Positions 4,586-42,911 of a stretch of DNA of 46,576 nucleotides are shown piece by piece. A model generated the notes under the pieces. That model was not told the origin of the DNA. It saw nothing but the letters and a program-made list of their open reading frames with translations, and ran no database searches. Position 1 is the stretch's first letter. Each line of letters opens with the position of its first letter. Where the stretch lies: IMG/VR virus record IMGVR_UViG_3300025732_000004; one strand, 5' to 3'. The position numbers and the translations under genes were made by a program. The stretch is from a virus.

Positions 4586-5938
4586 TTAGTAGGTGCGGAA
4601 GTCGCTGCCGCCCGAGGCGTAGCGGCGCAGGGGGTTCAGGGCCCAGATCGCGTAGCCGGCGGCATCGACGGGGTGGCTGGGGTCGTCGAGGCCGGAGCCG
4701 CCTTTTTCTGGCTTGCCGCTTTTGTCGTATGCCTGTTGCTCCAGACTCTTGATCAGGTGCTTGCAGCGGGGGTGGACGCGGAGACGGTCGCTCATCAGCA
4801 GCACGTTCATCGCGTTTACGCGGTCCTCGATGGCGGGGTTGCTGCGTTGCTCCTTGAGGACGAAGCCGCCTTTGCGGAGGATGCTTAGGTCGCTCTCCTT
4901 GGCGTTGGTGGTGGTGCGTTGGCGGGAGGCGGCGTCGGGGATCACCACGACGTCGCCGCGTTCGTGCTGGGGTGCATAGCGCTCCTGCAGCAGTGACACG
5001 ATCGCGGGGGTGTCGCGGACAACGTGCTCCTCCACGAAGTGGAACTCGTTGCCGCGGCGTACCAAGACCTCGATCATGCAGTTGCCGACGTTGAGGTCAA
5101 TTCCGGCGTAGACGCGGTCTTCTGGGAGGACGCTTGCGTCCGACCAGTGGCGGTCGCGGTCAAAGTCCGGGTAGACGCTGGTGTTGGCGAGGTTGGTGAA
5201 CTCGCCCTCGATGTAGCTGCGGATTAGCTGGGGCGGGAAGTTGGCGTAGAGCGACTCGACGAAGCCCGGAGGGAGGTGCGGATTGTCGGTGGTCTTGGCT
5301 TTGATCAGGCGCCTGTCGCTGGCGTCGCTCTCGATGAAGGTGCGATACATCCACCGATAGCCCTCGGGCGTGGAGGCGACCGCGAGCTGGGGCTTGTTGC
5401 CGCCGCGGAGTCGCGCCAACACCATCTCGGAGGCTTTCTGGGCGACCTCCGTGGGGCTCGTGTCCACCTCGTCAATGCAGGCGAAGCTGAGGTTCTGGCC
5501 GCGGATGCGGTTCCATGTCTCCGTGGCACGGCACAAAATCGTGCAGGGGCCATGCGGCAGGTGCAGCGTGTAAATGGGCTGGGGTGAGATGCGGAAGTCG
5601 TAGGCGATGTTCTGCGCCTCCAGGAAGTCGTCGAAGCTCCGCACCCAGACGTCCAAAATCATCTGGAACGTCGGTTCAAACACCGCGCCGACGGTGTTGG
5701 GGTTGTCCATCGCCAGCGCCACCGTCTTGCAACACAGTGCGTGCGTCTTGCCGGCGCCAAAACCGGCGCAGTAGCCCACGATCTTCGCGTCCACTTCGTC
5801 CACGAAGGCACGCTGCGCCGGCAGCATTCCGCTTAAGAGCTGGTGCCGTAGCTCCTCGTACGTCTTGTCGCACCGCGTGTTCGTGATGATCGGCGGCTCT
5901 AAAACGCTGCCGCCCGAGATGACTCCGAGGATGGGCAC
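4586..5938 (-). CDS. terL: Terminase large subunit
   Basis: Walker A GYCAGFGAGKTHAL and Walker B-like LSFACIDEVD, followed by a C-terminal nuclease-type region. 450 aa. Confidence 0.9.
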   Translation of the reverse strand: MPILGVISGGSVLEPPIITNTRCDKTYEELRHQLLSGMLPAQRAFVDEVDAKIVGYCAGFGAGKTHALCCKTVALAMDNPNTVGAVFEPTFQMILDVWVRSFDDFLEAQNIAYDFRISPQPIYTLHLPHGPCTILCRATETWNRIRGQNLSFACIDEVDTSPTEVAQKASEMVLARLRGGNKPQLAVASTPEGYRWMYRTFIESDASDRRLIKAKTTDNPHLPPGFVESLYANFPPQLIRSYIEGEFTNLANTSVYPDFDRDRHWSDASVLPEDRVYAGIDLNVGNCMIEVLVRRGNEFHFVEEHVVRDTPAIVSLLQERYAPQHERGDVVVIPDAASRQRTTTNAKESDLSILRKGGFVLKEQRSNPAIEDRVNAMNVLLMSDRLRVHPRCKHLIKSLEQQAYDKSGKPEKGGSGLDDPSHPVDAAGYAIWALNPLRRYASGGSDFRTY

Positions 5939-5986
5939 GGGGCGCCGCCTGCAGCTTCTACGGCTGATTCTAGCTAGGTAGCTCGT

Positions 5987-6010
5987 GGGGGAGTGGGGGT
6001 AGGGGGAGGG
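5987..6010 (+). other. G-quadruplex-type motif GGGGGAGTGGGGGTAGGGGGAGGG
   Basis: Four G-runs (5, 5, 5 and 3 G) separated by 1-3 nt loops, read directly. It lies in the terL-proximal divergent intergenic region. Confidence 0.5.
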
Positions 6011-6235
6011 TGCGTGCGTAGGTAGTAAGTGGGGGTTGGTTATATCTAGGAGGCGCGGGGTATGGCTCTCCCCGCCGCGGCCGTTTGCCCGGGGGCAGGC
6101 CGGCGCCCGCGGCGCCCGCGGCGCCCGTGGCGCAAGCGATCCCGGCGGCTGCGCCTACTAGTGGCGGAGACTAATGCGGCTGGCGCGGTGTCAGAAACCC
6201 GGCGCGGATTGTCTGCGCGATCCGCGGCGCGGATA

Positions 6236-6266
6236 TTGGCAAACCTCCCTACATAGGTGATATCAT
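6236..6266 (+). promoter_or_regulatory. Candidate sigma-70-type promoter: TTGGCA, 19-nt spacer, TATCAT with an extended -10 TG
   Basis: ttggca at 6236-6241, tg at 6258-6259, tatcat at 6261-6266. An 8-bp inverted repeat (aacctccc 6242-6249 / gggaggtt 6277-6284) flanks it, and GCGCGGAT repeats (6202, 6227) lie upstream. Confidence 0.35.
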
Positions 6267-6418
6267 GGAGAAAGGCGGGAGGTTAGCGCTGGCGCAGCCG
6301 GTGCAACGGAGCCTCTCTAAAAGCCTTGCCCGCAAGCTCGACCCTTGCGGCTCTTGCGGCTCCGTTACCGGTTCAGCCGGCGCCATCCCTCCCGCCCCGT
6401 TCCACTGCTACCTGACCC

Positions 6419-6616
6419 ATGGCCACCACCTATGCCACCTTTCCGGACCTCGTGTACGACGGCGGCCGCTATGCGCAGACCGTCTGGCACGGCGCCAGCG
6501 TTGCCGATGCCGTAGCCGCCACGTTGCGCCTCACGCCCGATGCCGTCGTGATGCTGGCCAAGTCGCAAACAGAGCGCGTCGCCGGTTTCGGTCCCGCCGG
6601 TCTGGGCGCTCTGTGA
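6419..6616 (+). CDS. Hypothetical protein (65 aa), first gene of the plus-strand cassette
   Basis: ORF with balanced composition. Its stop overlaps the next ATG (ATGA). Confidence 0.5.
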   Translation: MATTYATFPDLVYDGGRYAQTVWHGASVADAVAATLRLTPDAVVMLAKSQTERVAGFGPAGLGAL

Positions 6617-6747
6617 TGGCGCGTCGCATCCTCGCCGGCGCCATTGCCGCCGTAGCGCTGGCGCTTTGGTCCGACATCCTCCGCCCAGGCGCCGTACCGC
6701 TCCGCGCCACATCCGGCGCCCCGATCCCCACGGCGCTAGCCGACTAG
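6616..6747 (+). CDS. Small membrane protein (43 aa, MARRILAGAIAAVALALWSDIL...)
   Basis: ATGA-coupled to the upstream ORF, with one hydrophobic helix. It is the in-frame tail of track ORF 6265..6747. Confidence 0.4.
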   Translation: MARRILAGAIAAVALALWSDILRPGAVPLRATSGAPIPTALAD

Positions 6748-6766
6748 CGCCCCCTCACTGCATAAC

Positions 6767-6783
6767 GGGCGCCGCTGGCGCCC
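6767..6783 (+). other. Perfect GC hairpin gggcgcc-gct-ggcgccc
   Basis: 7-bp stem and 3-nt loop, followed by ggcgcctttcc. Possibly a weak terminator or attenuator inside the cassette. Confidence 0.3.
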
Positions 6784-6831
6784 GGCGCCTTTCCTGCTAA
6801 CCACAATCCGGCGCACAGCGCCGCTCCTGCC

Positions 6832-7482
6832 ATGCCAACCACCAAACCCGCTCTAACCCTCACCATCACCACCACCAAGGGCCAGCGTGAGATCCCCGCC
6901 ATCTGGCGCGGTCGCAATATCGCGGTTCATGCGCGTTTCGCCAATGGCACGCTGTCGCCGCTGCGCGGTCAATACGGGATTACGCATCTCATCACCGGCT
7001 ACAGCTGCGGCGCCTTCCAATGCTCTAAGGCGCGTGTTCTGAAGCTGGCGCGGCTATGGGATACGCGTTTTGGCGACCTTACCGTCGCCGGTGCTGAGCG
7101 CAGCTGGCGCTACCGCGACACATATACGGCAGACGTTCGGCGCGTGATCGCTGGCGAGGCTCCGGAAGGTCCGGTGCTGCCCGACTTCCCCACTAGCGGC
7201 GACGTTGCCGCGGCCATCTCTCACGCCATCGGCGGCAGTTATGCGCCAGCGGCGCCCGATGATGCAGCAGCGCAATATCCGGCGCGCGAGACGGTAGCCG
7301 CTTCGCTGCTACGCGATGGCGCCGATAGCTTGGAGCTGCTGTGGCGCGGCAAGTGGTGGCCGGTGCCGACGTTCGGCGAGGTTGAAGCGTGGTGTTTCGA
7401 CAGCGTCGCCGAGACACCGGACGGACGCACGGTGGAATGTGACGCGCCGGACGCGTGGCCGCGGCTGCTAGGCGTCATTTGA
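6832..7482 (+). CDS. Hypothetical protein (216 aa) with a conserved-looking C-terminal ...ETPDGRTVECDAPDAWPRLLGVI tail
   Basis: ORF with normal composition. I recall the C-terminal D-G-x-x-V-E-x-D...W-x-x-L-L-G-(L/V)-I pattern from many uncharacterised phage and actinobacterial proteins; this is from memory and unverified. Confidence 0.6.
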   Translation: MPTTKPALTLTITTTKGQREIPAIWRGRNIAVHARFANGTLSPLRGQYGITHLITGYSCGAFQCSKARVLKLARLWDTRFGDLTVAGAERSWRYRDTYTADVRRVIAGEAPEGPVLPDFPTSGDVAAAISHAIGGSYAPAAPDDAAAQYPARETVAASLLRDGADSLELLWRGKWWPVPTFGEVEAWCFDSVAETPDGRTVECDAPDAWPRLLGVI

Positions 7483-7607
7483 CGCGCCGGCGCTACCCAA
7501 CCGCCTAGCGGGCGCTACGGCGCCCGCACCTAGTGCCATGCGCGCCGGCTGTCCCGGCGCGGCTTTGCGGTGCCGGCGTATAGCCGGCGCCCACTGCTAC
7601 GGGACAC

Positions 7608-8342
7608 ATGCCACGCACCACCACACAGCCGGCGCCAGACGTCGCTGGCTCCTATCGCTTCCACCTAACGGCGCGCAGCGCTAACGCCAAAACCGGCCCG
7701 ATACCGGTTTCGACATCGCCGGCGCAGACGTGTCCCACGGGCGACGTCTGCCCTTTTAAGGGCAATGGCTGTTACGCGGAACGGGGCCCGCTGGCGCTTC
7801 ATTGGCGCGCTGTCAGTGAAGGGCGCCGCGGTGTGCCGTGGGGCGCCTTTCTCAATGCGATCCGGGCGCTACCGGTGGGGACGCTATGGCGCCACAACCA
7901 GGCCGGCGACCTTTACAAGCCACAGACGGCTATCGGGCGCACAGCGCTGGCGGCGCTAGTCGACGCAAACCGCGGCCGGCGCGGGTTCACCTACAGCCAC
8001 CACCGGCGCACACCGGCGGTAGCGCAAGCGTTTTGCGCTGCTACCGCTAACGGCTTCACTGTTAACGCCAGCTGCCACAGTGAGGCAGAGGCAGACGCCG
8101 CCATCGCCAATGGCTTGCGCGCCGTGTTTGTGGTCGCCGCGGATGATCCCCGCACTATCTGGCGCACAGCTGGCGGCAACCGCGCCGTTGTCTGCCCGGC
8201 ACAGCGCTTTGATGCCATGACGTGCGAGCGGTGCCGTTTGTGTCATGCGCGGCCGCAGGAGGTGGCGGTGGTGTTCCGGGCGCACGGCACCGGTGCCGCT
8301 GCGATCGAACGCGCGATAGCCGCGGCCGGCGCCAATGGCTGA
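7608..8342 (+). CDS. Cys-rich phage protein, GP88-like (244 aa)
   Basis: AKTGPIPVSTSPAQTCPTGDVCPFKGNGCYA near the N-terminus and CPAQRFDAMTCERCRLCH near the C-terminus. This matches my memory of the GP88 family pattern. Function unknown. Confidence 0.5.
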   Translation: MPRTTTQPAPDVAGSYRFHLTARSANAKTGPIPVSTSPAQTCPTGDVCPFKGNGCYAERGPLALHWRAVSEGRRGVPWGAFLNAIRALPVGTLWRHNQAGDLYKPQTAIGRTALAALVDANRGRRGFTYSHHRRTPAVAQAFCAATANGFTVNASCHSEAEADAAIANGLRAVFVVAADDPRTIWRTAGGNRAVVCPAQRFDAMTCERCRLCHARPQEVAVVFRAHGTGAAAIERAIAAAGANG

Positions 8343-8778
8343 GCGGCACCGCGCCACTGACGCCGAGCGCCGCCAGCGGGAGGCGGACGCGCTGGCGCTG
8401 TTGAGCGCTGGAGCCGGTAGCGCCTTTGCGGCGCAGACGCTGGCGGAGCGCTACGGCTGCAGCCTGAGGCAAGCGCGCCGCTATGTGGCGGCCGCGTCCT
8501 TTGAGCTAGTAGAGCCAGCCACGCCGGCCGAGCTTGACCGACTGGCCATGCTGTCGTTGCACCGCTTGGATCTAGTGGCCGGCCGGGCGATGGCGGCCGG
8601 CGATGACACGCTGGCCGTGCGCGCTACGCGCGCGCAAGCTGCGGCGCTGGCGCAGTTCCGGCGCGCCATCACAGCGCCGGCCGTACGGTTCCGGCTGGCG
8701 GATGCCCGGCCGCTACCACGCGGCCAGCCGGCGCCGGGCGATGGCGCCGCGGATCCGGAGCCCATGCCATGGGACTAA
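8335..8778 (+). CDS. HTH DNA-binding protein (147 aa)
   Basis: The segment AFAAQTLAERYGCSLRQARRYVAAA is helix-turn-helix-like and is followed by a helical region. Last gene of the plus-strand cassette. Confidence 0.5.
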   Translation: MAERHRATDAERRQREADALALLSAGAGSAFAAQTLAERYGCSLRQARRYVAAASFELVEPATPAELDRLAMLSLHRLDLVAGRAMAAGDDTLAVRATRAQAAALAQFRRAITAPAVRFRLADARPLPRGQPAPGDGAADPEPMPWD

Positions 8779-8805: not shown

Positions 8806-8830
8806 GCGCCCCGGCATGGGGCGCCTTTTT
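8806..8830 (+). terminator. Rho-independent terminator of the plus-strand cassette
   Basis: gcgcccc (8806-8812), loop ggcat, ggggcgc (8818-8824), then c + ttttt (8826-8830). It starts 28 nt after the stop at 8778. Confidence 0.65.
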
Positions 8831-9191
8831 CATGCGCCGCCAGCGCCGGCCGCGGCTGTGCGCCATGGGCGGCGCTGGCGCCTTTTATGGCCTTGCTATG
8901 GCCGCCGCTGGCGCCGCGGTGCCGGTGCTGCGATCCGGTGCCCATGGCACGGGGCGGCGCCAGCGGCTGCCGCGCCGCGGTGCCGCTGTTGCGATTGCGT
9001 CTCAATAGCGTTAGCGCCCGTGGCTGTGGGCGGCTGTGGTTGGAGCGGCGCCGGTGGCACGAGGTGCCAGGCGCCGCAACGTCCACTGCTACGCAGACGC
9101 CCCCACGTTACCACCGCTGGAGCCGCCGCGGCCACCGGCGCTACCCCCACGATCTGGTGCCCAGCCGCTAGAGCCGCCAGAGCCATCCCCT

Positions 9192-9332
9192 TGAATGCGT
9201 TTTTGAGCCATGAATGGCATTACGCCATGAATGGCATTTGCGCGGTGAATGGCGCTGGCGCGGTGAATGCGTTTTGAGGCGGGGCGTGCCTTGAATGCGA
9301 ATCTGGTGCCCAGCAGCTCATGCAGTGAATGG
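9192..9332 (+). repeat. Iteron-like array: seven direct copies of TGAATG(G/C)
   Basis: Copies start at 9192, 9211, 9228, 9246, 9264, 9292 and 9326, all in the same orientation, with spacings of 19, 17, 18, 18, 28 and 34 nt. Longer sub-repeats: ccatgaatggcat x2 and gcggtgaatg x2. Confidence 0.8.
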
Positions 9333-9340
9333 CGCGGGCG

Positions 9341-9943
9341 CTACTGGTGGCGCGACAGCAGCTGTAGCAAGTCGGCTTGGAGGCGTAGGGCGCCGATGGC
9401 GTTGGAGCCCTGGCGCATCTGGAGCGCCTGCTCTAACACTTGCTCCAGCTGCTGAATCATCTGCGCCGCTTTGTCTTTGCGGACGTAGACGTCAACGTCG
9501 ACCACCATCTGCTTCCGCGCTTCGTGCATCCGTGACTCTGCGGCACGAGACAGGAGCCCCCACTCATCGGCACATAGCTGGCGTATCTGATTCGGGCGCT
9601 TGCCCATAGTTAGCCACTCCTGCACTTGCGCTACCTGTGCCGCAATCTCCATTGCGCTGTAGGCGTTGCGGCGCCTCTTGGCGGGTGGCGCGTCGGCGTC
9701 AATGGCTTCGGGGCTATCTGTAGAGGTAGCTTCTGTGGCTTCGGGGGCTGCGCTGCTATCTGGGGCCCCCGCGTCGTCAGCTTCGGTGGCGGCAGCGGCG
9801 ATGGCGCAAGCGGCGTCAGCGGCTTCGGGCTCCTCGGCGGTGGGTGGCTCTTGAGGTGGGGCGGCTTCGGGCGGCGTCTGTGGCTCCTCGAGCACTGGAG
9901 CTGGGGCCTTAGGGCTTGGCTCAGGTGGCGGGAGCGAGATCAT
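9341..9943 (-). CDS. HTH protein with a long acidic Pro/Ala/Glu N-terminal region; candidate terminase small subunit
   Basis: The C-terminal half (QVQEWLTMGKRPNQIRQLCADEWGLLSRAAESRMHEARK + helical tail) has the HTH-plus-oligomerisation layout common in small terminases. The gene carries the leader motif shared with the structural genes and abuts the iteron array. No motif-level proof. Confidence 0.35.
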   Translation of the reverse strand: MISLPPPEPSPKAPAPVLEEPQTPPEAAPPQEPPTAEEPEAADAACAIAAAATEADDAGAPDSSAAPEATEATSTDSPEAIDADAPPAKRRRNAYSAMEIAAQVAQVQEWLTMGKRPNQIRQLCADEWGLLSRAAESRMHEARKQMVVDVDVYVRKDKAAQMIQQLEQVLEQALQMRQGSNAIGALRLQADLLQLLSRHQ

Positions 9944-9953
9944 CGCGACTACA

Positions 9954-9973
9954 GCGTTACGCTATGTTTCCCC
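9954..9973 (-). promoter_or_regulatory. Leader motif copy GGGGAAACATAGCGTAACGC, 10 nt upstream of ATG 9943
   Basis: Read on the minus strand; aligns with the tail-tube copy GGGAAACCTAGCGGTAACCC. Confidence 0.5.
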
Positions 9974-10025
9974 GCCCACGCCCGCGAAGCGGGCAGCGGC
10001 GGTGGCTTGGGAGCGGTGAATGGGG

Positions 10026-10076
10026 ATCTAGCCTGCGGCTAGATACACCTTCCCCAATAATAGCTACTATAGCTAT
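10026..10076. promoter_or_regulatory. Two operator-like palindromes in an AT-rich patch
   Basis: atctagcc-tgc-ggctagat (10026-10044) and atagcta-cta-tagctat (10060-10076), upstream of gene 9341..9943. Confidence 0.4.
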
Positions 10077-10101
10077 AGGAGCCGCCCCCGCAAGGGGCGC
10101 C

Positions 10102-10281
10102 TTAGGAGCCGTAGAACGCCTCTAGAGCCTCACAGTGCTCCCGGAGCCACTCGTTAATGGCTACCTGAGCTAGATGCGATACAGAGACGCCCATAAGCTC
10201 CGAGAGCTGGGTGAGCTTGCGCTTGTCAGCAGGGTATGGGTTAAAGGCTACGCGCTTGGCGCAGGAGGTTGACTCAGTCAT
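10102..10281 (-). CDS. Ribbon-helix-helix (CopG/Arc-like) protein, 59 aa
   Basis: My translation is MTESTSCAKRVAFNPYPADKRKLTQLSELMGVSVSHLAQVAINEWLREHCEALEAFYGS, a strand-helix-helix layout. The ORF starts 3 nt after the upstream stop. Not in the ORF track (<60 aa). Confidence 0.5.
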   Translation of the reverse strand: MTESTSCAKRVAFNPYPADKRKLTQLSELMGVSVSHLAQVAINEWLREHCEALEAFYGS

Positions 10282-11212: not shown

Positions 11213-11908
11213 TTAAGGCTCCTGTGGCATTGAGTAGTACGCCTTCAGGCGTGCTTTGAAGCGGGTGGTGGCCGCGGCCAACTCGTCGGCGTCTAGCTCC
11301 CAGATGTCTGGTGCCGGGCCCGCAGGGCGGGCAATCACGAGTAGCGCACGCTGGGGTACAACGCCGTACACGTACTTGAGCCCCAACGCGTATCCGGCGA
11401 GCTGACAGAAGTAGTCCTCGACGAGGGTGGCGTCACGCTTGCGCTTTGACGTCTTCCAGTCCAGCAGCGTTAGCGCCTCAGGGGCTTTGCCGTAGTTGAC
11501 GTAGCCGAGTGCGTCAAAGGTGCCTGCGAAGCCCAGGGGGCTATACACAGTTCGCTCAATCGCCACTTTCTGGTCCCAGTGGTTCTGGAGCCAGGGGCGA
11601 ATGTTGCGCCAGTAGCCGCTAAAGGCGAAGTGCTGGGGGTCAGTGAATGGCTCGCCAGCGCTGTGCGCGTTGATCCAGCCCTCGATGGCTTTGTGCGTCC
11701 AGGTGCCGCGCTGCTTCGCAGCGGTGCTGATGGCTTCGGCGTCGGGGCGCTGGAGCCACTGTTGGAGGCGCTCCTTGCCGGCGCTGGTGGCGCCGAGGAT
11801 CGTCGTCATCGGCGGTTGGCGGCCCAGCGGCGTCTTGTACGTCTTGTGATCTGGGGCGCAGATCGCAATGCCGCGGGCGGGGGGTAGCTCTAACAGGCGC
11901 TCAGGCAT
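11213..11908 (-). CDS. PD-(D/E)XK nuclease (RecB/Cas4-like exonuclease)
   Basis: GTFDALGYV ... LTLLDWKTSKRKR ... QLAGYALGL corresponds to the D...(D/E)xK...QxxxY motif order of this superfamily. Confidence 0.6.
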   Translation of the reverse strand: MPERLLELPPARGIAICAPDHKTYKTPLGRQPPMTTILGATSAGKERLQQWLQRPDAEAISTAAKQRGTWTHKAIEGWINAHSAGEPFTDPQHFAFSGYWRNIRPWLQNHWDQKVAIERTVYSPLGFAGTFDALGYVNYGKAPEALTLLDWKTSKRKRDATLVEDYFCQLAGYALGLKYVYGVVPQRALLVIARPAGPAPDIWELDADELAAATTRFKARLKAYYSMPQEP

Positions 11909-12092: not shown

Positions 12093-12294
12093 AGATCAGC
12101 TCCGAAAATGGGGTGAGGCGGGTGCCGTCGCGGACGACAACCGTTAGCTGTTGCTGGTGGTGGTCAAGCCAGCGGCGGCGGGCGTTATGTGCCTCCTCGC
12201 TGGTGCTCCACCAATGCGCCTCGTCGGCGTGTTGTGTCCAGTCGACGTGGGTGCCTACATAGCCCTGGGGGCCTCGTAGCAAGTAGCGGGTCAC
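12079..12294 (-). CDS. Hypothetical protein (71 aa)
   Basis: ORF in an operon-like arrangement. Confidence 0.5.
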   Translation of the reverse strand: MTRYLLRGPQGYVGTHVDWTQHADEAHWWSTSEEAHNARRRWLDHHQQQLTVVVRDGTRLTPFSELIYGRP

Positions 12295-12593
12295 GGTGTC
12301 TCGTAGCAGTGGTCGCCACGGCGTTCACGCGTCTCAAAGAAGCCGTCTAGCTCTGGGCAGCGGTCCATCAAGAGGCGGGCGTAGTACGCCGTGTGGTTGT
12401 TGTTCAGGCGGAAGGTGCGGGCGCTGGCGCTGGTGCGGAGCATCAGCTCATAGCGGCACACCTCCCACAACGCCTTGATGCCCCAGCGGTGAATGCCCCC
12501 GCGATACAGCTGGAGTGCCAGGCGCTCCAGCGTTTCGTAGATGTGTGGGTTCTGTTCGTGAAACTCCCAGAACGCACGCTCGTGGCGGTTCAT
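12291..12593 (-). CDS. Hypothetical conserved phage protein (start MNRHERAFWEFHEQNPHIY)
   Basis: The ORF's N-terminal extension to 12662 overlaps the upstream gene and looks non-coding. Confidence 0.55.
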   Translation of the reverse strand: MNRHERAFWEFHEQNPHIYETLERLALQLYRGGIHRWGIKALWEVCRYELMLRTSASARTFRLNNNHTAYYARLLMDRCPELDGFFETRERRGDHCYETP

Positions 12594-12612
12594 AGCTGGG
12601 GCGGGGCGGCGT

Positions 12613-13215
12613 TCAGCTTTTGGTGCCGCCGAATGGGTTGCCGCCCTCGTACAGGGCTTCAAGATCCGCGCCGGCGCTGCACACCTCGTCCCAGGCGTTG
12701 ATCACCGCCTGCGCCACCTTCGTGTTGGAGCGCTTGGTGGGCACCATGTCCACGCTGTACTTCGTGTCGGTGCCTTTGCCGCGGCGGGTGATCTTCATGT
12801 CCCACTGGGGCAGGTCGGCGTAGTCCTCATCCGACGTCAGGCGCTCGATCTCAGCCAGCAGCGTCTTCTGGTTGGCGCTAAAGACTTTGACGGCTTCAGC
12901 TTCGTAGTCGTACACGAAGAAAGCGCTGCAGGGCTTGATGGCTTTGCGGCCGTCGCGCTCGGTGACGGTGCCGCCTACTTGCTTCTCAAGCTGGGCCAAC
13001 AGCTCGGCGTCGGGGTGCTGGGGCGTGATGCGCTTCGTCATCCCGCCGTCGTTCTTGGTGAACCAGATCTCCACGCCCTCCAAAGGCGCTTCAGACAGGA
13101 TGCAGAAACGGACGCTGTCGCCGTCAGAAATAGAGCTGGGGTTCAGATAGCCACCGCCGCTGCTCTCCTTGGGTGCCAGGGCAGTGGCGGTGAAGTCTTT
13201 GCTGAAAAAGGGCAC
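12613..13215 (-). CDS. Hypothetical protein; possible ssDNA-binding or annealing protein
   Basis: 200 aa, adjacent to the nuclease. The functional guess rests on position only. Confidence 0.3.
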   Translation of the reverse strand: MPFFSKDFTATALAPKESSGGGYLNPSSISDGDSVRFCILSEAPLEGVEIWFTKNDGGMTKRITPQHPDAELLAQLEKQVGGTVTERDGRKAIKPCSAFFVYDYEAEAVKVFSANQKTLLAEIERLTSDEDYADLPQWDMKITRRGKGTDTKYSVDMVPTKRSNTKVAQAVINAWDEVCSAGADLEALYEGGNPFGGTKS

Positions 13216-14172: not shown

Positions 14173-14507
14173 TGGAGCTATGTAGGTAGGAACTACCGTA
14201 CTGCTAACAGGGGCATTTGGGCAAAGTCCCTTAGATACTCTGGTCCGTACAGTGACTTACCTATCCCCACACACGTTGTGGGGGAAGGGATTTGGGTGCG
14301 GCACTAGGGGTAAGTCGAGATGAGGCGGTGACTCATGTCCTGCCTCATCTCACCTGTATCAGTGGTGAGACAGGCCACCAGCACAGGTGCGGCATGAGGT
14401 GAGGCGCTGCCGCACCCCTGACTGACGCCCCTGCCGCACCTAAATCCACTGCAGCGCAAAGGGTCTCAGCGAGATGAGTCAAAAATAGACCGAGTGTATA
14501 TAGGGAA

Positions 14508-14550
14508 AACCCCCTGCCGCAGGCGCCGGATGGTGCCGCAGCAGGGGGTT
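14508..14550 (-). terminator. Terminator-like hairpin after the primase-helicase gene
   Basis: aaccccctgc (14508-14517) pairs with gcagggggtt (14541-14550). On the minus strand the stem runs into tttt(cc). It begins 27 nt after the stop at 14577. Confidence 0.5.
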
Positions 14551-14576
14551 GTGCGTGAGACGCGTGTGTCGCGCCG

Positions 14577-23130: not shown

Positions 23131-23290
23131 CATCACCCGCTGCCACGGCATCGACTGCCACCAGAAACACCAGTGCGCCAGGCACACCGCGCCGGTCCCC
23201 GACAACGTGCTGTTGTCTTGGGTTGCCACATTGAACCCTGAGCGAGCGCACCTCTGCCCTGACTTCATCGCCACCCGCTCCGCTGACTAA
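23120..23290 (+). CDS. Small Cys/His-rich protein (about 56 aa, ...SDITRCHGIDCHQKHQCARH...LCPDF)
   Basis: My translation. Its stop TAA shares one nt with the sigma ATG (TAATG). Not in the track. Confidence 0.4.
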   Translation: MLSDITRCHGIDCHQKHQCARHTAPVPDNVLLSWVATLNPERAHLCPDFIATRSAD

Positions 23291-24405
23291 TGACAACCCG
23301 CCAGCCTCAGACCAAATCATCCATCTCTCAGTACCTCAACGAGATTGGGGCGCATCCGCTGATGTCACCCAGTGAGGAGATTGAGTGCGGCAGAGCCGTG
23401 AAGCGCATGACAGAGCTGAAACAGGAGGCGCAAGAACGCACCCTCACCAGCAAAGAGCGCCACGCCATCCGCCGCGGCGAACGCGCCAAGAAGCGTTTCA
23501 TCGAAGCCAACCTGCGGCTGGTGGTGCATTGCGCCAAGAAGTACGCCCGCAACTCGCTCCAGTTCACCGAGCTGGGCGACCTCATCCAAGAGGGCTCAAT
23601 CGGCTTGGTGCGGGCGGTGGAGCTGTTTGACCCCGAACGCGGCTACAAGTTCTCCACCTACGCCTACTGGTGGATCCGCCAGGCGATGACCCGCTCTATC
23701 GCTGTCACGGAGTGGGCCATCAAACGCCCATCCACCGTGGGAGAGCTGGCGATGCGGCTGCCCAAGCTGGTGCATACGCTCTCGCACGAGCTGGGGCGGA
23801 CGCCGACCTCCGCTGAGATCGCCAAGGCGGCCAAGGTTTCACTGAGCGAGCTGAACCTGATGTACGAACGGGGGCGGGGGCTGGTGTCCCTTGACGCCTC
23901 CGTCTTGGATCGCGAAGACGGCAGCGGCCTTATCGAGATCATCGCGGACCCCGCCTCCTTCAACAGCGAAGACAACGACGCCGCTCTGGATCTGGAGCTG
24001 AACGAGGCGCGGCTCATTCCCGTCATCGATCAGCTCACCGACGTGGAGCGCCGCATCGTTGAGCTGCGCTATGGGCTCAACGGCAATCAGCCGCAGGCGC
24101 TCAACGCCATCGGCAGGGAGATCGGCGTGTCACGGGAGCGCATCCGGCAGGTGCTGGAGCGGTCCATTCGCCGGATGCGCTTCCTGCTCAATCAGCCTGT
24201 GCTGCCCGGTAACCGTACAGACGAAGCACCAGCCGTAGAAGCCACGGAACACGCGCCGGAACGCAGTAATCAGGCGCTATGGGGGCATCTTGTGCTGGAG
24301 GGGTTGCCGCTTGCGACTCGTAAAGCACAGTGGCAATCTCCAGCTCCGCAATACGGTGCGTGGCCTTCTTCACAATGCTCTGATACAGCATCAGTTGCTG
24401 CGTGA
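23290..24405 (+). CDS. Sigma-70 family sigma factor with regions 1.2, 2, 3 and 4
   Basis: YLNEIGAHPLMSPSEE (region 1.2), FIEANLRLVVHCAKKY...DLIQEGSIGLVRAVELFDPERGYKFSTYAYWWIRQA (region 2), LTDVERRIVELRYGL...IGREIGVSRERIRQVLERSIRRMR (region 4). About 70 codons follow region 4.2. Confidence 0.9.
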   Translation: MTTRQPQTKSSISQYLNEIGAHPLMSPSEEIECGRAVKRMTELKQEAQERTLTSKERHAIRRGERAKKRFIEANLRLVVHCAKKYARNSLQFTELGDLIQEGSIGLVRAVELFDPERGYKFSTYAYWWIRQAMTRSIAVTEWAIKRPSTVGELAMRLPKLVHTLSHELGRTPTSAEIAKAAKVSLSELNLMYERGRGLVSLDASVLDREDGSGLIEIIADPASFNSEDNDAALDLELNEARLIPVIDQLTDVERRIVELRYGLNGNQPQALNAIGREIGVSRERIRQVLERSIRRMRFLLNQPVLPGNRTDEAPAVEATEHAPERSNQALWGHLVLEGLPLATRKAQWQSPAPQYGAWPSSQCSDTASVAA

Positions 24406-38482: not shown

Positions 38483-39234
38483 CAGAGGATCTGTAGCACT
38501 GTCAGAGTCACGTTGTAACGGGTGGTCTTCACACCGGACACCACCGCAACCTCAGCCGTTGAGGTCGGGGGGCTGATCGGGAACCAACTGCCCGCACTCG
38601 GCACTGCGCCAATGGTGCTGTCGTACCACGCCAGCAAGTTGGGGTAGGTGCCGCTGGAGATGTAGCCCTCCACTTGGCGAACCTTGTGCGCCACCAGCGG
38701 CCCCGTGACGTAGCTGGTGCCTGTTGCGGTCAGCGCCACGTTCGGACCGTCCTGGCGGGTGTCCATGGGCTTGGTCAGCGTCACCGTGACTGCGGTGCCG
38801 CCACTGCCAAAGGTGATCGTGCCGAGGTTGGGCTTGTCCTTGTCTTTGTCCTTCTCGATGCCGCGCAGCAGCACCTGCAGCGCTTGAGCGGCATCCACCA
38901 TCACCACCGTGGCGGAGACAAAGGCGCCGGCTTGCTCACCAGATGGTGGGTCCGCAAACCAACAGGCGAGGTTGGTGACGCTCAGGTTGTTGGTGTTGGT
39001 GATCGTCAGCGCGATCGTGGTGCCGACCACGCCGGAGAGCAGCGTGTCCTGATCCTGGATGCGGGTGCTGCGCCAGCTGTTGTACTCGCTCACCAGCGTC
39101 TGCCACTCGGCGGGGGTGAGCAGACCGCTGATGCGGAATGTGCGGGCGGTGAGGCCGGAGCGGGCTTCACCCTCGTAGCCGAAGGGCTGGGCCGTCAGGC
39201 GGTTGGTGCTGAAGCTGCCGATTGTGACTGTCAT
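38482..39234 (-). CDS. Distal tail protein candidate (250 aa; ATG 39234 overlaps the tape-measure stop, ATGA)
   Basis: Position immediately after the tape measure. Confidence 0.45.
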   Translation of the reverse strand: MTVTIGSFSTNRLTAQPFGYEGEARSGLTARTFRISGLLTPAEWQTLVSEYNSWRSTRIQDQDTLLSGVVGTTIALTITNTNNLSVTNLACWFADPPSGEQAGAFVSATVVMVDAAQALQVLLRGIEKDKDKDKPNLGTITFGSGGTAVTVTLTKPMDTRQDGPNVALTATGTSYVTGPLVAHKVRQVEGYISSGTYPNLLAWYDSTIGAVPSAGSWFPISPPTSTAEVAVVSGVKTTRYNVTLTVLQIL

Positions 39235-42200
39235 TGGACTGCAGAGTTGAGGACGTTGCCAAAGGTCGTAACGCCGCCGCCCGAATCGACGTTCACAGTG
39301 ACCGCCCACGTCTTCTCGGCGAGCTTGCCAACCTGCTTTGCCAAGACACTGTTGACGCCCAGCAGCTCTTTGTTAATAGCTGCAACGTCGGCTTGTGCGG
39401 TTGAGAGGTTATTCCTGCTTTCGTTCTCTTTTTGTACGGCAGTAATAAAGTCGTCAACCTTCTTGAAGCTTGCTACGGATGCGTCTGGGCCGGCAGCGCC
39501 AAAAAAGGGTTTGCCGTTGATAGTGCCGAACTGCTTCTTATCGCCGCGAGAGCCGGCAATAATGCTGCGTAGCTCATTGATCAGACTGTTATCAAGACTG
39601 AGCCCTTGTTCCTTTAGTATCTTGGATGCTATTGATATGGAACGTTCAAGATCCGGGCCAAGGCGTGCGGTGGCTGTATTTAGCCTGACCTGCCGTTGTT
39701 CTGGGCGCAAGAACCGATTAAGCCCCTCGTCAGGATTGGCTTGGATGCCTGATAGCTCAAGCCGTGCTTGCGTCAGGCGATTTGCTGCGCCGGTCACAAC
39801 GTCAGCGATTTGGCGGGCGCCATCAACCATTGCAGTCTTAAAAGCAATCGCAGCAGCTACAAGCTCCTTGCCAGCGGCAAGTTGTTCTGGGCGTGAAGCC
39901 TTTGGATCGTTCAGGAGATTAGAGTAGTTGGTAAAGGCTGCCTGCCTGTCCTTTCGTGCGGCGTCAATAGTGGCCCGGATGTTGTTGATTTCTTGAACTG
40001 GGGCGGGCTTTAGGCGCTCAACCTGCTGCCTTAAATAAGCTCTGCGCTCTTCTTGGTTGGCAAACAGGTCTTTCTTGGCTTGCTCGCGAATGCTGGCGGC
40101 CTTGCTGGGGTTATCTTTGATGGCAAGATCACGGTCGCGAATGATCTTTTGCTGTTGCAGGTAGAACAGCTGGAGCTTGTACCCCTGCGCGGTGGCTTGG
40201 GTGATCCTGTAGTCCAGTTGGCTGGCAGCAGCTCTCTCCTTTGCCAGAGCAACGGCGCGGGCCTCAAGGGCGTTGATCTCCTGCTGAGTTCGGCGCTGAC
40301 GGTCAGCGATGACCCCACGCTGCCGTGCTTCGTCTAGCGCAACCTTGTTGGCGGTTTCGACATCAGGGACAACCTTAAAAGCGGCTAGCGTATTACGTCT
40401 CAGCAGAATCTGAGCCGCGGCCTGTTGACCATACTGAGCTTTAACGTCATCAACAGTTGTACGAAAATCTCCCTCCCCTATGCGCTGATTAGCTCCGGGC
40501 CCTGTGGGTTTACCCCCTAAGGCGCGATTTAGCACTCCCAGCAAAGCCGCCATTGGTCCTGCTACTAGCTTTGCTGTGGTAACTCCCAGCTCCGAGTAGG
40601 TGCGGTTCAACTCGTCCTGAGCTGCGGCCAGATTATTGATTTCCTTGGTGCTGCCAAAACGCTTGACAAAGTCTATTTGGATCTGGAGCGCAGCCTCTGC
40701 TGTCTTTCCGTTATCAATAAGGTTCTGGATATTCTTCTCAACAGCACGCGACGACAGTAGAGCGGCTTCCTTAAGTGCCTGGAAGCTTTCTACTGGCTTG
40801 TTTAACGCGTCGCCAATGGTCTTCAGCTTGGCAAGGGCGGCATCAAACTGGGCGCCAACGGCGGTGCCGAGCAGCGACAGTCCAAAGCCAAAGTTTCCGC
40901 CCAGCTTGCCGCCGGTGAAGCCGCCCAAGCTACCGCCCAAGCTGGCGCCCAGACCTTGACCAAATAGCAGCGGGAATGCGCCACCAATCAGGGCGTCGCC
41001 CAGTGCAGCATTGGAACGCTGCGCACCCTGCAGCCGACGCTGCGCACCCTGCAGCCGACGCTGCCGCGCCAGATCCGCAGGTGAGCCTGGAATCACTTGT
41101 CCGTTAATCAGGCGTCCGCTGACGGGGATCGCTGGACCTCGTATCTGAGCTTGCGTTGCTTGCCGGGCAATGTCTGCTGGTGAGCCCGGTATCACGCGCC
41201 CGTTGATCAGGCGCCCAGAAACGGGTAGCGATGGGCCACCACGACGCTCAAGGTCGCGTTGAGCTTTGGCTTGCGCTTGTGTTGCGGCTAGCTTTTCTCT
41301 CGCAACGGTCAGCTGGTCACGGAGCTGTTGCGTGATCTGTTTGGCCGTGCCAAGTTCACCAGTCCTAAGTGCACTATCTAGATCTGCGTATAGCTTCTTG
41401 ATCTGCGTTACATCAGCGCCTTGGCGTTGAAGTTGTAGCCCTGCTGCGCCAATGCTCAACTGCGCCGATTGCAGCGAAGCTCTTGTCGCTAAGGAGCTAG
41501 CGGGGCCACCCTGCCCGGCGCGGCGTGCTTCTTGGCGACGCTGCTCCTCAAGAAACGCTGGTGAGCCAGGTAGATCCTTGCGACCACGAATGGGCTCGCT
41601 AGGCCCACCGACTCGGGCAGCGCGATCCGTCAGACGCTGCAGTTCGCGGGTGCGGCGGAGGCGCGCCTCGGTCAGCGTCACTTGCTGTCCAAGCTGAGCA
41701 GTGATCTGACGGGCGCTGCCAAACTGGCGCTCAGCTAATGCGGTATCAAGCTGCGCCAGCCGAATCTGGAGCGCCCCCACATTTGCGCCTTGCTGCTGCA
41801 GCCGCGCAATTCGCTGGTCAAGTGCGAATCGACGCTGCTGAGCACGCTCGTTTGCCAACAGTGACTCCGAAGCGCCGCCCTGACGCGCACCACGATCCAA
41901 GATCTGGCGGCGCAGACGCTCCCGGGCTTCTAGAAACGCCGGAGAGCCAGGGATGTTTCGGCTGCCGCGAATAGAGTCACGCGGACCTCCAGCAGTAGCC
42001 GATGCTCTGAGCTGGCGTTCTTCGCGACGGCGCTGCTCCGCAAGGAACCGCGGAGATCCGGGGAGGTCAAGCCGCCCTTGGATGGGCTCGCGGGGGCCTC
42101 CGAGCCGAGCTGTGCGCTCAACTGCACGCTGAACATCGCGCTCACGCCGAGCGCGTGCTTCCGTCAAAGTGACTTGCCGCTCCAGCTCACGGGACAGCTG

Positions 42201-42911
42201 GCGGGCAGTTCCGAACTGACGCTGCGCATAGGAGGTGGTCAGCTCGCCCAGCTGGCGCCGGAGCGACTGTGTTGCGACACCACGCTCCTCAAGCCGCTCA
42301 ATTCGCTGCGAAATCTTGAAGCGGCGATCCTGCGCTCGCTCCAACGCAAAGATTGACTCGCGGGCTCCCCCCATCGCAGCACCGACCGCTGCGTTCTGGC
42401 GCTGCACACGCTCCTGACGCCGGAGGGTAGCTAATCGGCGCTCCTCCAACGTGATCTGGCGGGCTAGCTCCTGCCCACGCTGCCGGAATGACCCAAACTG
42501 ACGGCGGGATTGCGCCTCGGTCAAAGCGCCCAGTTGGACGCGCAGACGGGCGACATTGGCGCCCTGCTCCTCCAGCGTGTCAATCCGCCGGGCCAGGCGG
42601 AACCGGCGCTCTTGCGCAATCTCTAGGGCGCGTACACCTTCACGCGCACCACCCTGTCGCGCTGCTCGGTCAATGCGCCGTTGCTCCTCTGCGTCTGCCC
42701 TACGGCGACGCCGATCCGCAGCTTCTTGTTGACGCTGCTGGCGGTTGATCTCGTTGGCAGCAGCGCTGGCAGAAGAACGGGTTTGGCCAGGACGCCCAGT
42801 GACGTCGCCCAGCTGCTGCTGAATTAGCTGACGCGCCTGCCGAAGGCTCTCCTCAAACGCACGGATGTCAACTGTTAGCCGTAGCTGAGCCTCGCCTAGG
42901 TTCTCCGCCAC
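39231..42911 (-). CDS. Tape measure protein (1226 aa)
   Basis: Very long, Arg/Gln/Ala/Leu-rich and coiled-coil-like, with modular repeats. It has a Gly-rich hydrophobic block GGAFPLLFGQGLGASLGGSLGGFTGGKLGGNFGFGLSLLG and lies upstream of the tail-tip genes. Confidence 0.85.
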   Translation of the reverse strand: MAENLGEAQLRLTVDIRAFEESLRQARQLIQQQLGDVTGRPGQTRSSASAAANEINRQQRQQEAADRRRRRADAEEQRRIDRAARQGGAREGVRALEIAQERRFRLARRIDTLEEQGANVARLRVQLGALTEAQSRRQFGSFRQRGQELARQITLEERRLATLRRQERVQRQNAAVGAAMGGARESIFALERAQDRRFKISQRIERLEERGVATQSLRRQLGELTTSYAQRQFGTARQLSRELERQVTLTEARARRERDVQRAVERTARLGGPREPIQGRLDLPGSPRFLAEQRRREERQLRASATAGGPRDSIRGSRNIPGSPAFLEARERLRRQILDRGARQGGASESLLANERAQQRRFALDQRIARLQQQGANVGALQIRLAQLDTALAERQFGSARQITAQLGQQVTLTEARLRRTRELQRLTDRAARVGGPSEPIRGRKDLPGSPAFLEEQRRQEARRAGQGGPASSLATRASLQSAQLSIGAAGLQLQRQGADVTQIKKLYADLDSALRTGELGTAKQITQQLRDQLTVAREKLAATQAQAKAQRDLERRGGPSLPVSGRLINGRVIPGSPADIARQATQAQIRGPAIPVSGRLINGQVIPGSPADLARQRRLQGAQRRLQGAQRSNAALGDALIGGAFPLLFGQGLGASLGGSLGGFTGGKLGGNFGFGLSLLGTAVGAQFDAALAKLKTIGDALNKPVESFQALKEAALLSSRAVEKNIQNLIDNGKTAEAALQIQIDFVKRFGSTKEINNLAAAQDELNRTYSELGVTTAKLVAGPMAALLGVLNRALGGKPTGPGANQRIGEGDFRTTVDDVKAQYGQQAAAQILLRRNTLAAFKVVPDVETANKVALDEARQRGVIADRQRRTQQEINALEARAVALAKERAAASQLDYRITQATAQGYKLQLFYLQQQKIIRDRDLAIKDNPSKAASIREQAKKDLFANQEERRAYLRQQVERLKPAPVQEINNIRATIDAARKDRQAAFTNYSNLLNDPKASRPEQLAAGKELVAAAIAFKTAMVDGARQIADVVTGAANRLTQARLELSGIQANPDEGLNRFLRPEQRQVRLNTATARLGPDLERSISIASKILKEQGLSLDNSLINELRSIIAGSRGDKKQFGTINGKPFFGAAGPDASVASFKKVDDFITAVQKENESRNNLSTAQADVAAINKELLGVNSVLAKQVGKLAEKTWAVTVNVDSGGGVTTFGNVLNSAVQ
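41017..41058 (-). repeat. Perfect 21-bp tandem duplication inside the tape measure (encodes RRLQGAQ twice)
   Basis: cgctgcgcaccctgcagccga occurs twice (41017-41037 and 41038-41058), followed by a partial third unit. Confidence 0.9.

Follow-up and report, generated by a model that had tools for sequence, protein, structure and literature searches.

Which process in the life of a phage would call for seven copies of a single hexamer, all pointing the same way, in the space between two converging operons? The question is raised by the IMG/VR virus record IMGVR_UViG_3300025732_000004, of which a stretch of 46,576 nt (the window) was analyzed. The element concerned is an array of the motif TGAATG in a 562-nt non-coding gap where a rightward and a leftward operon meet, next to the gene of a 200-residue protein that is a candidate small terminase. 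We find that this array forms the densest part of a DNA signal with a single orientation, situated in a whole phage group at the boundary between the packaging side and the recombination-replication side of the genome. The window is a circular assembly with an exact 127-nt end overlap (1-127/46450-46576) and represents a complete genome of 46,449 unique bp with a mean G+C content of ca. 63%. Since 127 nt is a common assembler k-mer, the overlap is uninformative on the physical ends of the phage DNA.

All seven copies are on the top strand and start at 9192, 9211, 9228, 9246, 9264, 9292 and 9326, with successive spacings of 19, 17, 18, 18, 28 and 34 nt, just as they had been listed in the initial annotation of this DNA. 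Tandem Repeats Finder reported an 18-nt period over 9211-9269. The longer sub-repeats that the annotation described were also recovered: ccatgaatggcat at 9208-9220 and 9225-9237, gcggtgaatg at 9242-9251 and 9260-9269, tgaatgcgtttt(t)gag at 9192 and 9264, and atctggtgcccagc at 9152-9165 in the preceding spacer and at 9301-9314 in the array, as was the eighth copy of the motif, within gcggtgaatgg at 10013-10023. The position of this eighth copy is kept in the relatives L012-L018. Over the entire genome TGAATG is not over-represented: 14.1 copies would be expected on the two strands together, and 16 are present. No other hexamer of the genome is as clustered; TGAATG has seven copies in 141 nt, and the others reach at most five. 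In 100 dinucleotide-preserving shuffles the largest non-trivial hexamer cluster in 141 nt had 3-5 copies and never six or more, which bears out the suggestion that the clustering is beyond chance in a genome of this composition. The array sequence was the same in three independent assemblies of this phage. The array is a genuine, selected cis-element.

Relatives were gathered in two ways, through homologs of HTH147, a 147-residue helix-turn-helix (HTH) protein encoded upstream of the array, and independently by an unbiased scan of IMG/VR DNA for a pattern of three extended units; the scan hits L068, L085 and L106, which are coding tandem repeats, were set aside. The array is present in 65 non-redundant viral loci with 3-15 copies in units of 17-26 nt. 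Within these arrays the extended unit reads GCN-TGAATG-SS-N-TTT(T), while the sequence between the cores and the remainder of the gap are poorly conserved. The loci range from 25 to 66% in G+C content, and the proteins that they have in common with the window (TerL, exonuclease, SSB, primase-helicase) are often merely 22-38% identical. The location of the array is constant: on one side of it are always the packaging genes and on the other the exonuclease/SSB/primase-helicase module. The gene for the large terminase, TerL, is found to its left in 46 of the 65 loci at a distance of 1.9-5.5 kb (median 4.2 kb). The exonuclease gene, directly to its right in 48 loci, is the most constant right-hand neighbor, and the genes for the SSB-like protein and the primase-helicase follow farther to the right. 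Repeat arrays are often found beside genes for terminase or replication proteins and are as a rule specific to a lineage. What is unusual here is a six-base core that is invariant in at least 65 viral lineages, together with a strict one-way orientation and a gradient that is written into coding DNA.

Among 50,697 phage records none matched the array region at the DNA or protein level, and in the literature we found no published description of TGAATG arrays. The nearest cultured phages, as judged by TerL or by the protein in the TerS slot, are KBS-S-2A, MED4-184 and S-SRP02. As array carriers they had to be rejected; they show no array, clustering or polarity, with TGAATG strand counts of 12:15, 13:12 and 5:8, respectively.

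The one-way character of the motif and its thinning into coding sequence on one side constitute the main feature, which the initial annotation had missed. Over 69.8 kb of sequence, taken from the 3 kb on the right of the arrays in 30 loci, the array strand carries 135 copies of TGAATG and the opposite strand a single one, and the motif is the top over-represented hexamer of this zone. To the left of the arrays (84.6 kb) there are two copies on the array strand and eight on the opposite strand. Inside 46 exonuclease genes 102 copies are oriented as in the array against three that are reversed, whereas the SSB genes, 2-3 kb farther out, contain seven copies, so that the density drops from ca. 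1 per 240 nt in the exonuclease gene to ca. 1 per 2900 nt in the SSB gene. Conservation of the dispersed copies ends at the hexamer. In the window itself the tail is weak: beyond the array there are copies at 10017, 11644 and 12490, followed by one further top-strand copy in 34 kb (22053). To our knowledge, neither classical iterons nor known pac sites have a one-sided tail of this kind that extends into coding sequence.

Within exonuclease genes the copies are found in each of the three reading frames and at more than 40 different codon positions. In L097 the exonuclease gene is on the opposite strand and the motif nevertheless points from the array into that gene, and in L070 and L100 the genes around the array are co-oriented with the motif. 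The spread over reading frames and the gene orientations in these three loci show that the signal is selected at the DNA level, not as peptide or RNA, that it is sensitive to direction, and that it is set by position relative to the array and not by transcription or translation. Because the core is invariant, oriented one way and also present in neighboring coding sequence, TGAATG is read by something conserved and direction-sensitive.

Several functions at the level of RNA or protein were considered and rejected. Open reading frames across the array look spurious (low-complexity, rich in Arg and Trp), and a coding repeat does not agree with a motif found in three frames and at so many exonuclease positions. 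For a structured RNA, a tRNA or an RNA sponge there was no Rfam or tRNA match anywhere in the window, no conserved stem in the repeat flanks and no tie between orientation and transcription. A promoter cluster was dropped after a sigma-70 scan gave no hits; moreover the dispersed copies consist of the hexamer only and the late region has no copy on the strand concerned. Stop-start mini-ORFs (TGA-ATG) could be read only inconsistently from unit to unit.

The same orientation data bear on the idea that the array is an operator or roadblock. HTH147 or another regulator, bound to the oriented sites, would insulate the convergent operons, shut down the leftward early operon or stop leftward replication forks. 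This would fit the location of the array at a point of operon convergence where no intrinsic terminator closes the leftward operon, the presence of one copy in the leader of the gene for the 200-residue protein, and the weak matches of HTH147 to HTH families of transcription regulators. The variable orientation of genes relative to the motif in L097, L070 and L100 is contrary to a role based on transcription, HTH147 is missing from about half of the loci (34/65), no conserved promoter element accompanies the copies, and no universal binder was identified. We regard such a function as very unlikely. This estimate includes the fork-arrest form, in which the array would act like Tus/Ter and force unidirectional rolling-circle replication. 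Polar Ter sites occur next to the tus gene and resemble the co-oriented sites here, which lie between an origin-like gap (14173-14576) and the array.

The function that we favor, tentatively and well short of conviction, is that of a pac-type DNA-maturation signal. The ring-shaped small terminase TerS, as which we take the 200-residue protein, would dock on the phased TGAATG/T-tract units, and their shared orientation would fix the direction. TerL would then cut nearby, and packaging would begin toward the terminase and structural genes. For the same DNA end, the thinning co-oriented copies on the side of the exonuclease would serve either as secondary docking or cutting registers or as nuclease-entry signals. 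In this scheme the identity of the 200-residue protein as TerS, the reading of the array by the terminase, the position of the cut and the direction of packaging are what we infer; the synteny of the array with TerL and TerS-like genes is constant. TerL lies near the array in most loci and TerS-like genes adjoin either the array or TerL. Two TerS-like families sit against the array even where they are thereby separated from terL, and in the pac phages P22, SPP1 and P1 the terS gene is likewise away from terL yet against pac. An origin role is better filled by the gap at 14173-14576, and there is an accumulation of contig ends on the right of the array. If the array is a packaging signal, it provides a handle on the termini, packaging direction and transduction potential of a large uncultured aquatic, probably cyanobacterial, phage group.

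Comparison with characterized packaging sites gave both similarities and differences. The pac site of P1 contains seven TGATCA/G hexamers within 162 bp, which are bound by PacA, include Dam GATC sites and form two groups flanking the cut. The array resembles it in having a hexamer about seven times in ca. 150 bp, in or next to a gene of small-terminase type. Unlike in P1 pac, GATC is absent (9186-9340), all copies point one way, and on one side copies continue for kilobases. In the headful phage P22 the end sites of series initiation form six cut clusters ca. 20 bp apart over ca. 120 bp, in a register that is not encoded by repeats; a similar register of ca. 20 bp across 120-140 bp is present here, known from sequence alone. 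The small terminase of SPP1/SF6 acts on repeat-rich, bendable pac DNA (PMC4737164). Like this pac DNA, with its boxes A, B and C and its TerS ring, the array region has several sets of direct repeats, with T/A runs split by G+C, next to a putative terS (PMC4737164). The direct units with split T-runs thus count in favor of a pac site. Unlike the SPP1-type repeats, which diverged even between sister phages, the hexamer is invariant over distant lineages and over two TerS-like families.

The initial annotation had proposed the 200-residue protein as a small terminase, and this assignment is credible. The protein has at least 105 homolog clusters and consists of a disordered Pro/Glu-rich N-terminal half and a conserved, invariant-rich C-terminal domain of 105 residues, which is predicted with high confidence to consist, in this order, of an HTH, a helix of 44 residues and a last helix. 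The motif GQLQxxAQxLDSLGK is found near the C-terminus of many family members. The protein matches phrog_34910, as do a 109-residue protein of L011, whose gene precedes TerL by 370 nt on the same strand, and a 167-residue protein of L004, encoded to the right of the array. The weak neighbors of the flanking proteins in BFVD are TerS-like or DNA-binding. In ca. 23 loci a TerS-like gene has its 3' end against the array and in ca. 24 one is located on the side of TerL, counts that depend on weak matches to hidden Markov models (HMMs) and to the motif. In L105, L076 and L111 an unrelated small winged-HTH-like gene is located against arrays of 13-15 copies; its only relative in a cultured phage is found in Synechococcus podovirus S-SRP02, directly before the gene for maturase B (TerL). 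It is therefore plausible to call the 200-residue protein small-terminase-like, a label based on synteny and architecture and not on demonstrated homology. The notion that this protein and HTH147 are clear paralogs was abandoned, since profile comparison gave merely E = 0.12 although HMM cross-hits occur. The gap upstream of the gene (9944-10101) contains hairpins at 10023-10050 and 10078-10100, an AT-rich patch at 10038-10078 and the eighth TGAATG copy; it probably includes a promoter of its own for the gene.

A number of observations weigh against a pac function. The hexamer is invariant while the TerS-like proteins diverged so far that tblastn and profile comparison barely link them, and the specificity of small terminases normally changes fast. 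Invariance of the motif over terminase and replication proteins of 22-38% identity is unexpected for a small-terminase site, and equally for an initiator site. We know of no pac site with a polar tail of copies reaching 1-5 kb into neighboring genes, as found here with ratios of 135:1 and 102:3. The identity of the putative TerS was not demonstrated but rests on synteny and architecture, and searches with the 200-residue protein gave no hit in Pfam, NCBIfam or PDB sequences and none of significance with Foldseek. About half of the loci have their TerS-like gene 2-4 kb away from the array, beyond an operon of opposite orientation. Finally, the contig ends are at variable distances from the array, often in the exonuclease gene, and may reflect microdiversity instead of physical termini.

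These contig ends are distributed unequally. Of 81 contigs, 20 have their end within 1 kb on the right-hand side of the array and three have their start within 1 kb on the left-hand side; in the unbiased subset the numbers are 13-14 and 2. The right-hand ends are 7-1000 nt from the array, often within the exonuclease gene, and include those of contigs of 19.8, 22.4 and 41.8 kb. The pile-up suggests that a DNA end or a recombination boundary lies on this side of the array; it could result from a physical end, from a hot zone of recombination or from microdiversity. The start points of complete relatives' contigs were also considered as termini and discarded because their positions were inconsistent.

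A recombination hot zone downstream of the array would follow from a Chi-like function, which would account both for the pile-up and for the mosaic gene content of this region. The bottom-strand sequence CATTCA would be read by a helicase-nuclease, either host RecBCD or the phage RecB-family exonuclease, that enters at a DNA end beside the array. We consider this reading, in which the array and its tail would switch the enzyme from degradation to recombination and so protect the concatemer end left open by the terminase, unlikely. A Chi-like function and the favored pac function are compatible: the cut would be in or near the gap, the terminase would remain with the DNA on the side of TerL, and the open end would be guarded by the array. 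The ratios of 135:1 beyond the arrays and 102:3 in exonuclease genes, the use of three frames, the decrease of density with distance and the conservation of the hexamer alone in dispersed copies are as expected for Chi, and so is the dependence of orientation on position and not on transcription in L097. In the lambdoid phage LLS 20 of 23 Chi sites are in the active orientation and concentrated at the open end, and in Pseudomonas phage MD8 the ratio is 32:0 (PMC12315714). The anatomy of these terminally clustered sites is similar to what we observe, with extreme strand polarity, crowding toward one site or end and copies in coding sequence. Unlike the present motif, the sites in LLS and MD8 are known G-rich Chi octamers of known hosts and do not form regular tandem units; here the hexamer is AT-rich, the tandem core includes T-tracts and the host is a presumed one.

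This host is probably, but not certainly, cyanobacterial. The window encodes a full sigma-70-family factor with regions 1.2, 2, 3 and 4, for which the best match is the cyanobacterial RpoD family and the nearest named cellular homologs are cyanobacterial; relatives of this sigma factor are carried by many contigs of ca. 45 kb. The best TerL matches are from cyanosiphoviruses, and one homolog of the 200-residue protein was located in a metagenome-assembled genome (MAG) of Cyanobacteriota. Assignment of a prophage or host through genome contigs was tried and yielded a single short MAG contig. Marine Prochlorococcus and Synechococcus carry recBCD, unlike other cyanobacteria (PMC5101192). A host enzyme as reader would explain the independence of the motif from phage DNA-binding genes and its invariance over 25-66% G+C, if all hosts are picocyanobacteria; the sigma factor and TerL are hints to cyanobacterial hosts. 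Several points speak against Chi. All Chi sequences known to us are G-rich, and an AT-rich hexamer would be unusual among them. Chi would not require regular units of 17-26 nt with conserved T-runs, the cultured picocyanophages mentioned above have no polarity, and L055 has TGAAAG instead of TGAATG. In addition, the phages studied here own an exonuclease and SSB module, which Chi-rich lambdoid phages do not (PMC12315714).

A more general version holds that TGAATG/CATTCA is a polar traffic signal for an enzyme that processes DNA ends or translocates on DNA, and not the binding site of a neighboring regulator, to which we assign an equally low probability. The signal would be the Chi of picocyanobacterial RecBCD or one for the phage RecB-family exonuclease. 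The phage would stack it in tandem beside the maturation cut and seed the exonuclease gene with copies. Should the motif indeed be Chi-like, picocyanobacteria with RecBCD would have it as their recombination hotspot, and it would be the first Chi candidate in cyanobacteria as well as a new, tandem form of the terminal Chi clustering described in lambdoid phages.

The initial annotation had offered an origin with initiator iterons or a pac/cos site as the two functions of the array. Both remain classical readings; the initiator part fared less well, as no Rep-like protein, unwinding element or DnaA box was found in the window. Iteron origins (lambda ori, P4 ori/crr, P1/F/RK2) have tandem repeats ca. 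two helical turns apart, often beside the gene of the initiator, and may have extra copies, as in P4 crr and P1 incA. The array shares the tandem direct repeats at about two helical turns, with seven copies and a core spacing of 17-19 nt where at least three tandem direct repeats of ca. 17-22 bp are expected, and it is located beside the replication/recombination module in every locus. An initiator, here HTH147, would bind the direct repeats, bend the DNA by means of the T-tracts and recruit a T7-like replisome of primase-helicase, PolA and SSB. We judge this improbable. In contrast to iteron origins the array has a strict polarity and a gradient, whereas iterons do not spread polarly into adjacent genes. 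There is no AT-rich unwinding element beside it in the window, the lowest 40-nt G+C fraction being 0.40 and falling within the array itself, and no DnaA box with up to one mismatch was found near it. No Rep-family match or universal initiator was identified, and the HTH gene is dispensable in half of the loci.

HTH147 is of interest in its own right, as a strongly conserved HTH family of at least 198 homolog clusters with an SSB-like tail. Its predicted structure comprises the HTH, a helical hairpin and a disordered tail. The HTH_11 family was matched by 25 of 36 members, and beyond this nothing significant was found in Pfam, NCBIfam, PHROGs, PDB sequences, PDB folds or BFVD, nor any Rep-like homology. 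Most members have an acidic tail with [LMIP]PF at its end, resembling the C-terminal tip of SSB (DDDIPF). The C-termini of SSB and T7 gp2.5 recruit parts of the replisome, and by analogy the tail may favor an initiator role; the tail in the window ends in PEPMPWD and not in PF. HTH147 is 69-80% identical in lineages where TerL, exonuclease, SSB and primase-helicase are 22-38% identical. Its ratio of nonsynonymous to synonymous substitution rates (dN/dS) is ca. 0.13, at a dS of ca. 1.2-1.5 that is saturated. These values indicate long-term purifying selection rather than recent transfer, and conservation so far above the genomic background would suit an initiator.

The gene for HTH147 lies 250-700 nt upstream of the array on the same strand in 31 of the 65 loci. 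In the 34 others, including the complete 14.7-kb contig L099, it is absent upstream. L099 is close to L004 in its TerS-like gene and in a 95-residue gene and has an unrelated family in the HTH147 slot; such replacement by an unrelated gene was also seen in L083, L072 and L114. HTH147 as the obligate binder of the array was therefore dropped after the unbiased pattern scan, and it can be an accessory or lineage-specific partner at most, although it could be encoded elsewhere in those 34 genomes. Neither flanking HTH gene thus accompanies the array consistently: genes of TerS-like type adjoin it in about half of the 65 loci, and the HTH147 family is present in 31. A single case of covariation favors an initiator: L055 encodes a tailless HTH147 variant of 61% identity and has no TGAATG, but carries TGAAAG in a 6:0 ratio on the same side (5884-6912). 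At the place of the array (5630-5672) it has two perfect cyanobacterial-type TGTGGAAAA DnaA boxes, 31 nt apart.

A more typical origin-like region is found elsewhere in the window, just 3' of the primase-helicase gene, which further disfavors an origin at the array. This non-coding gap of 404 nt (14173-14576) contains at least six copies of TGCCGCA/TGCGGCA in both orientations and has its AT-rich minimum at 14470-14510. The lineage-specific equivalent in L016 (11958-12212) has at least 10 copies of TGTCCGAG/CTCGGACA, and that in L007 (12249-12348) four copies of TTGTCCCA at a 10-nt period. The region looks like a classical origin or operator and is, from its repeats and composition, a better origin candidate than the array. 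GC skew was of no use as an origin indicator because it tracks gene orientation only.

The genes and elements surrounding the array are listed below. The gene map was built from third-position G+C content and family searches.

Positions of the array, its dispersed copies and neighboring features in the window
Feature	Position	Strand or direction	Basis or remark
Late operon: TerL, portal, MuF-like, then structural genes wrapping around the circle	from TerL 4586-5938	leftward	
TerL, large terminase (Terminase_6N/6C)	4586..5938	-	family searches
Short operon, last genes DUF7227 (7608-8342) and HTH147 (8335-8778)	6419-8778	rightward	intrinsic terminator after
HTH147, 147-residue HTH protein	8335..8778	+	HTH, helical hairpin and disordered tail (model)
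Intrinsic terminator GCGCCCCGG-CAT-GGGGCGC then T-run, closing the rightward operon	8806..8832	+	kept in relatives
Non-coding spacer from terminator to array, 75% G+C	8833..9191	.	repeat-bearing
Dense array, seven co-oriented TGAATG	9192..9331	+	hexamer count, Tandem Repeats Finder
200-residue protein, small-terminase candidate	9341..9943	-	3' end 9 nt from array
Early operon: primase-helicase, SSB-like, PD-(D/E)XK exonuclease, putative ribbon-helix-helix protein, finally 200-residue protein	16835 to 9341	leftward	
Eighth TGAATG copy, within gcggtgaatgg (10013-10023)	10017..10022	+	leader/promoter gap, 74 nt upstream of start codon of 9341..9943
PD-(D/E)XK exonuclease	11213..11908	-	family searches
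Dispersed co-oriented TGAATG inside exonuclease gene	11644..11649	+	window's part of one-sided gradient
Dispersed co-oriented TGAATG inside gene 12291..12662	12490..12495	+	hexamer count
Operon with PolA, tyrosine recombinase and sigma-70-family factor (23290-24405)	from 16956	rightward	

The spacer between the terminator and the array contains lineage-specific repeats, namely GCGCCGCGGTGCCG at 8911 and 8972, ATGGCC-N5-ATGGCC at ca. 8884-8906 and the first copy of atctggtgcccagc at 9152, and is a candidate site for lineage-specific proteins. In the spacers of L012, L013, L014, L016, L039 and L053 a conserved TGATAACGATTCTCA is located between the terminator and the array (alignment A3, columns ca. 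625-645). It resembles a Fur/Zur-type 7-1-7 box (TGATAATNATTATCA) and is not present in the window. In one lineage, represented by L004 (3982-4268), L007 (6895-7182) and L099, a rightward 95-residue gene (phrog_2267) is located between the array and a further TGAATG copy, so that insertion of a gene is tolerated in the array zone.

Some observations were made on more distant parts of the window. The 59-residue protein encoded at 10102-10281 on the bottom strand appears by eye to be a ribbon-helix-helix protein and had no match in Pfam, PHROG or NCBIfam. The divergent gap between TerL and the rightward operon contains, at 6101-6133, a CGGCGCCCG tandem repeat of 3.7 copies with overlapping palindromes, as well as two copies of CGGCGCGGAT at 6200 and 6225; the repeat area is a possible regulatory region or alternative packaging region. 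A perfect 21-nt tandem repeat of 2.3 copies (41016-41064) lies inside an open reading frame of 1226 codons (39231-42911) and probably encodes a peptide repeat of a protein of the tail or tape-measure type.

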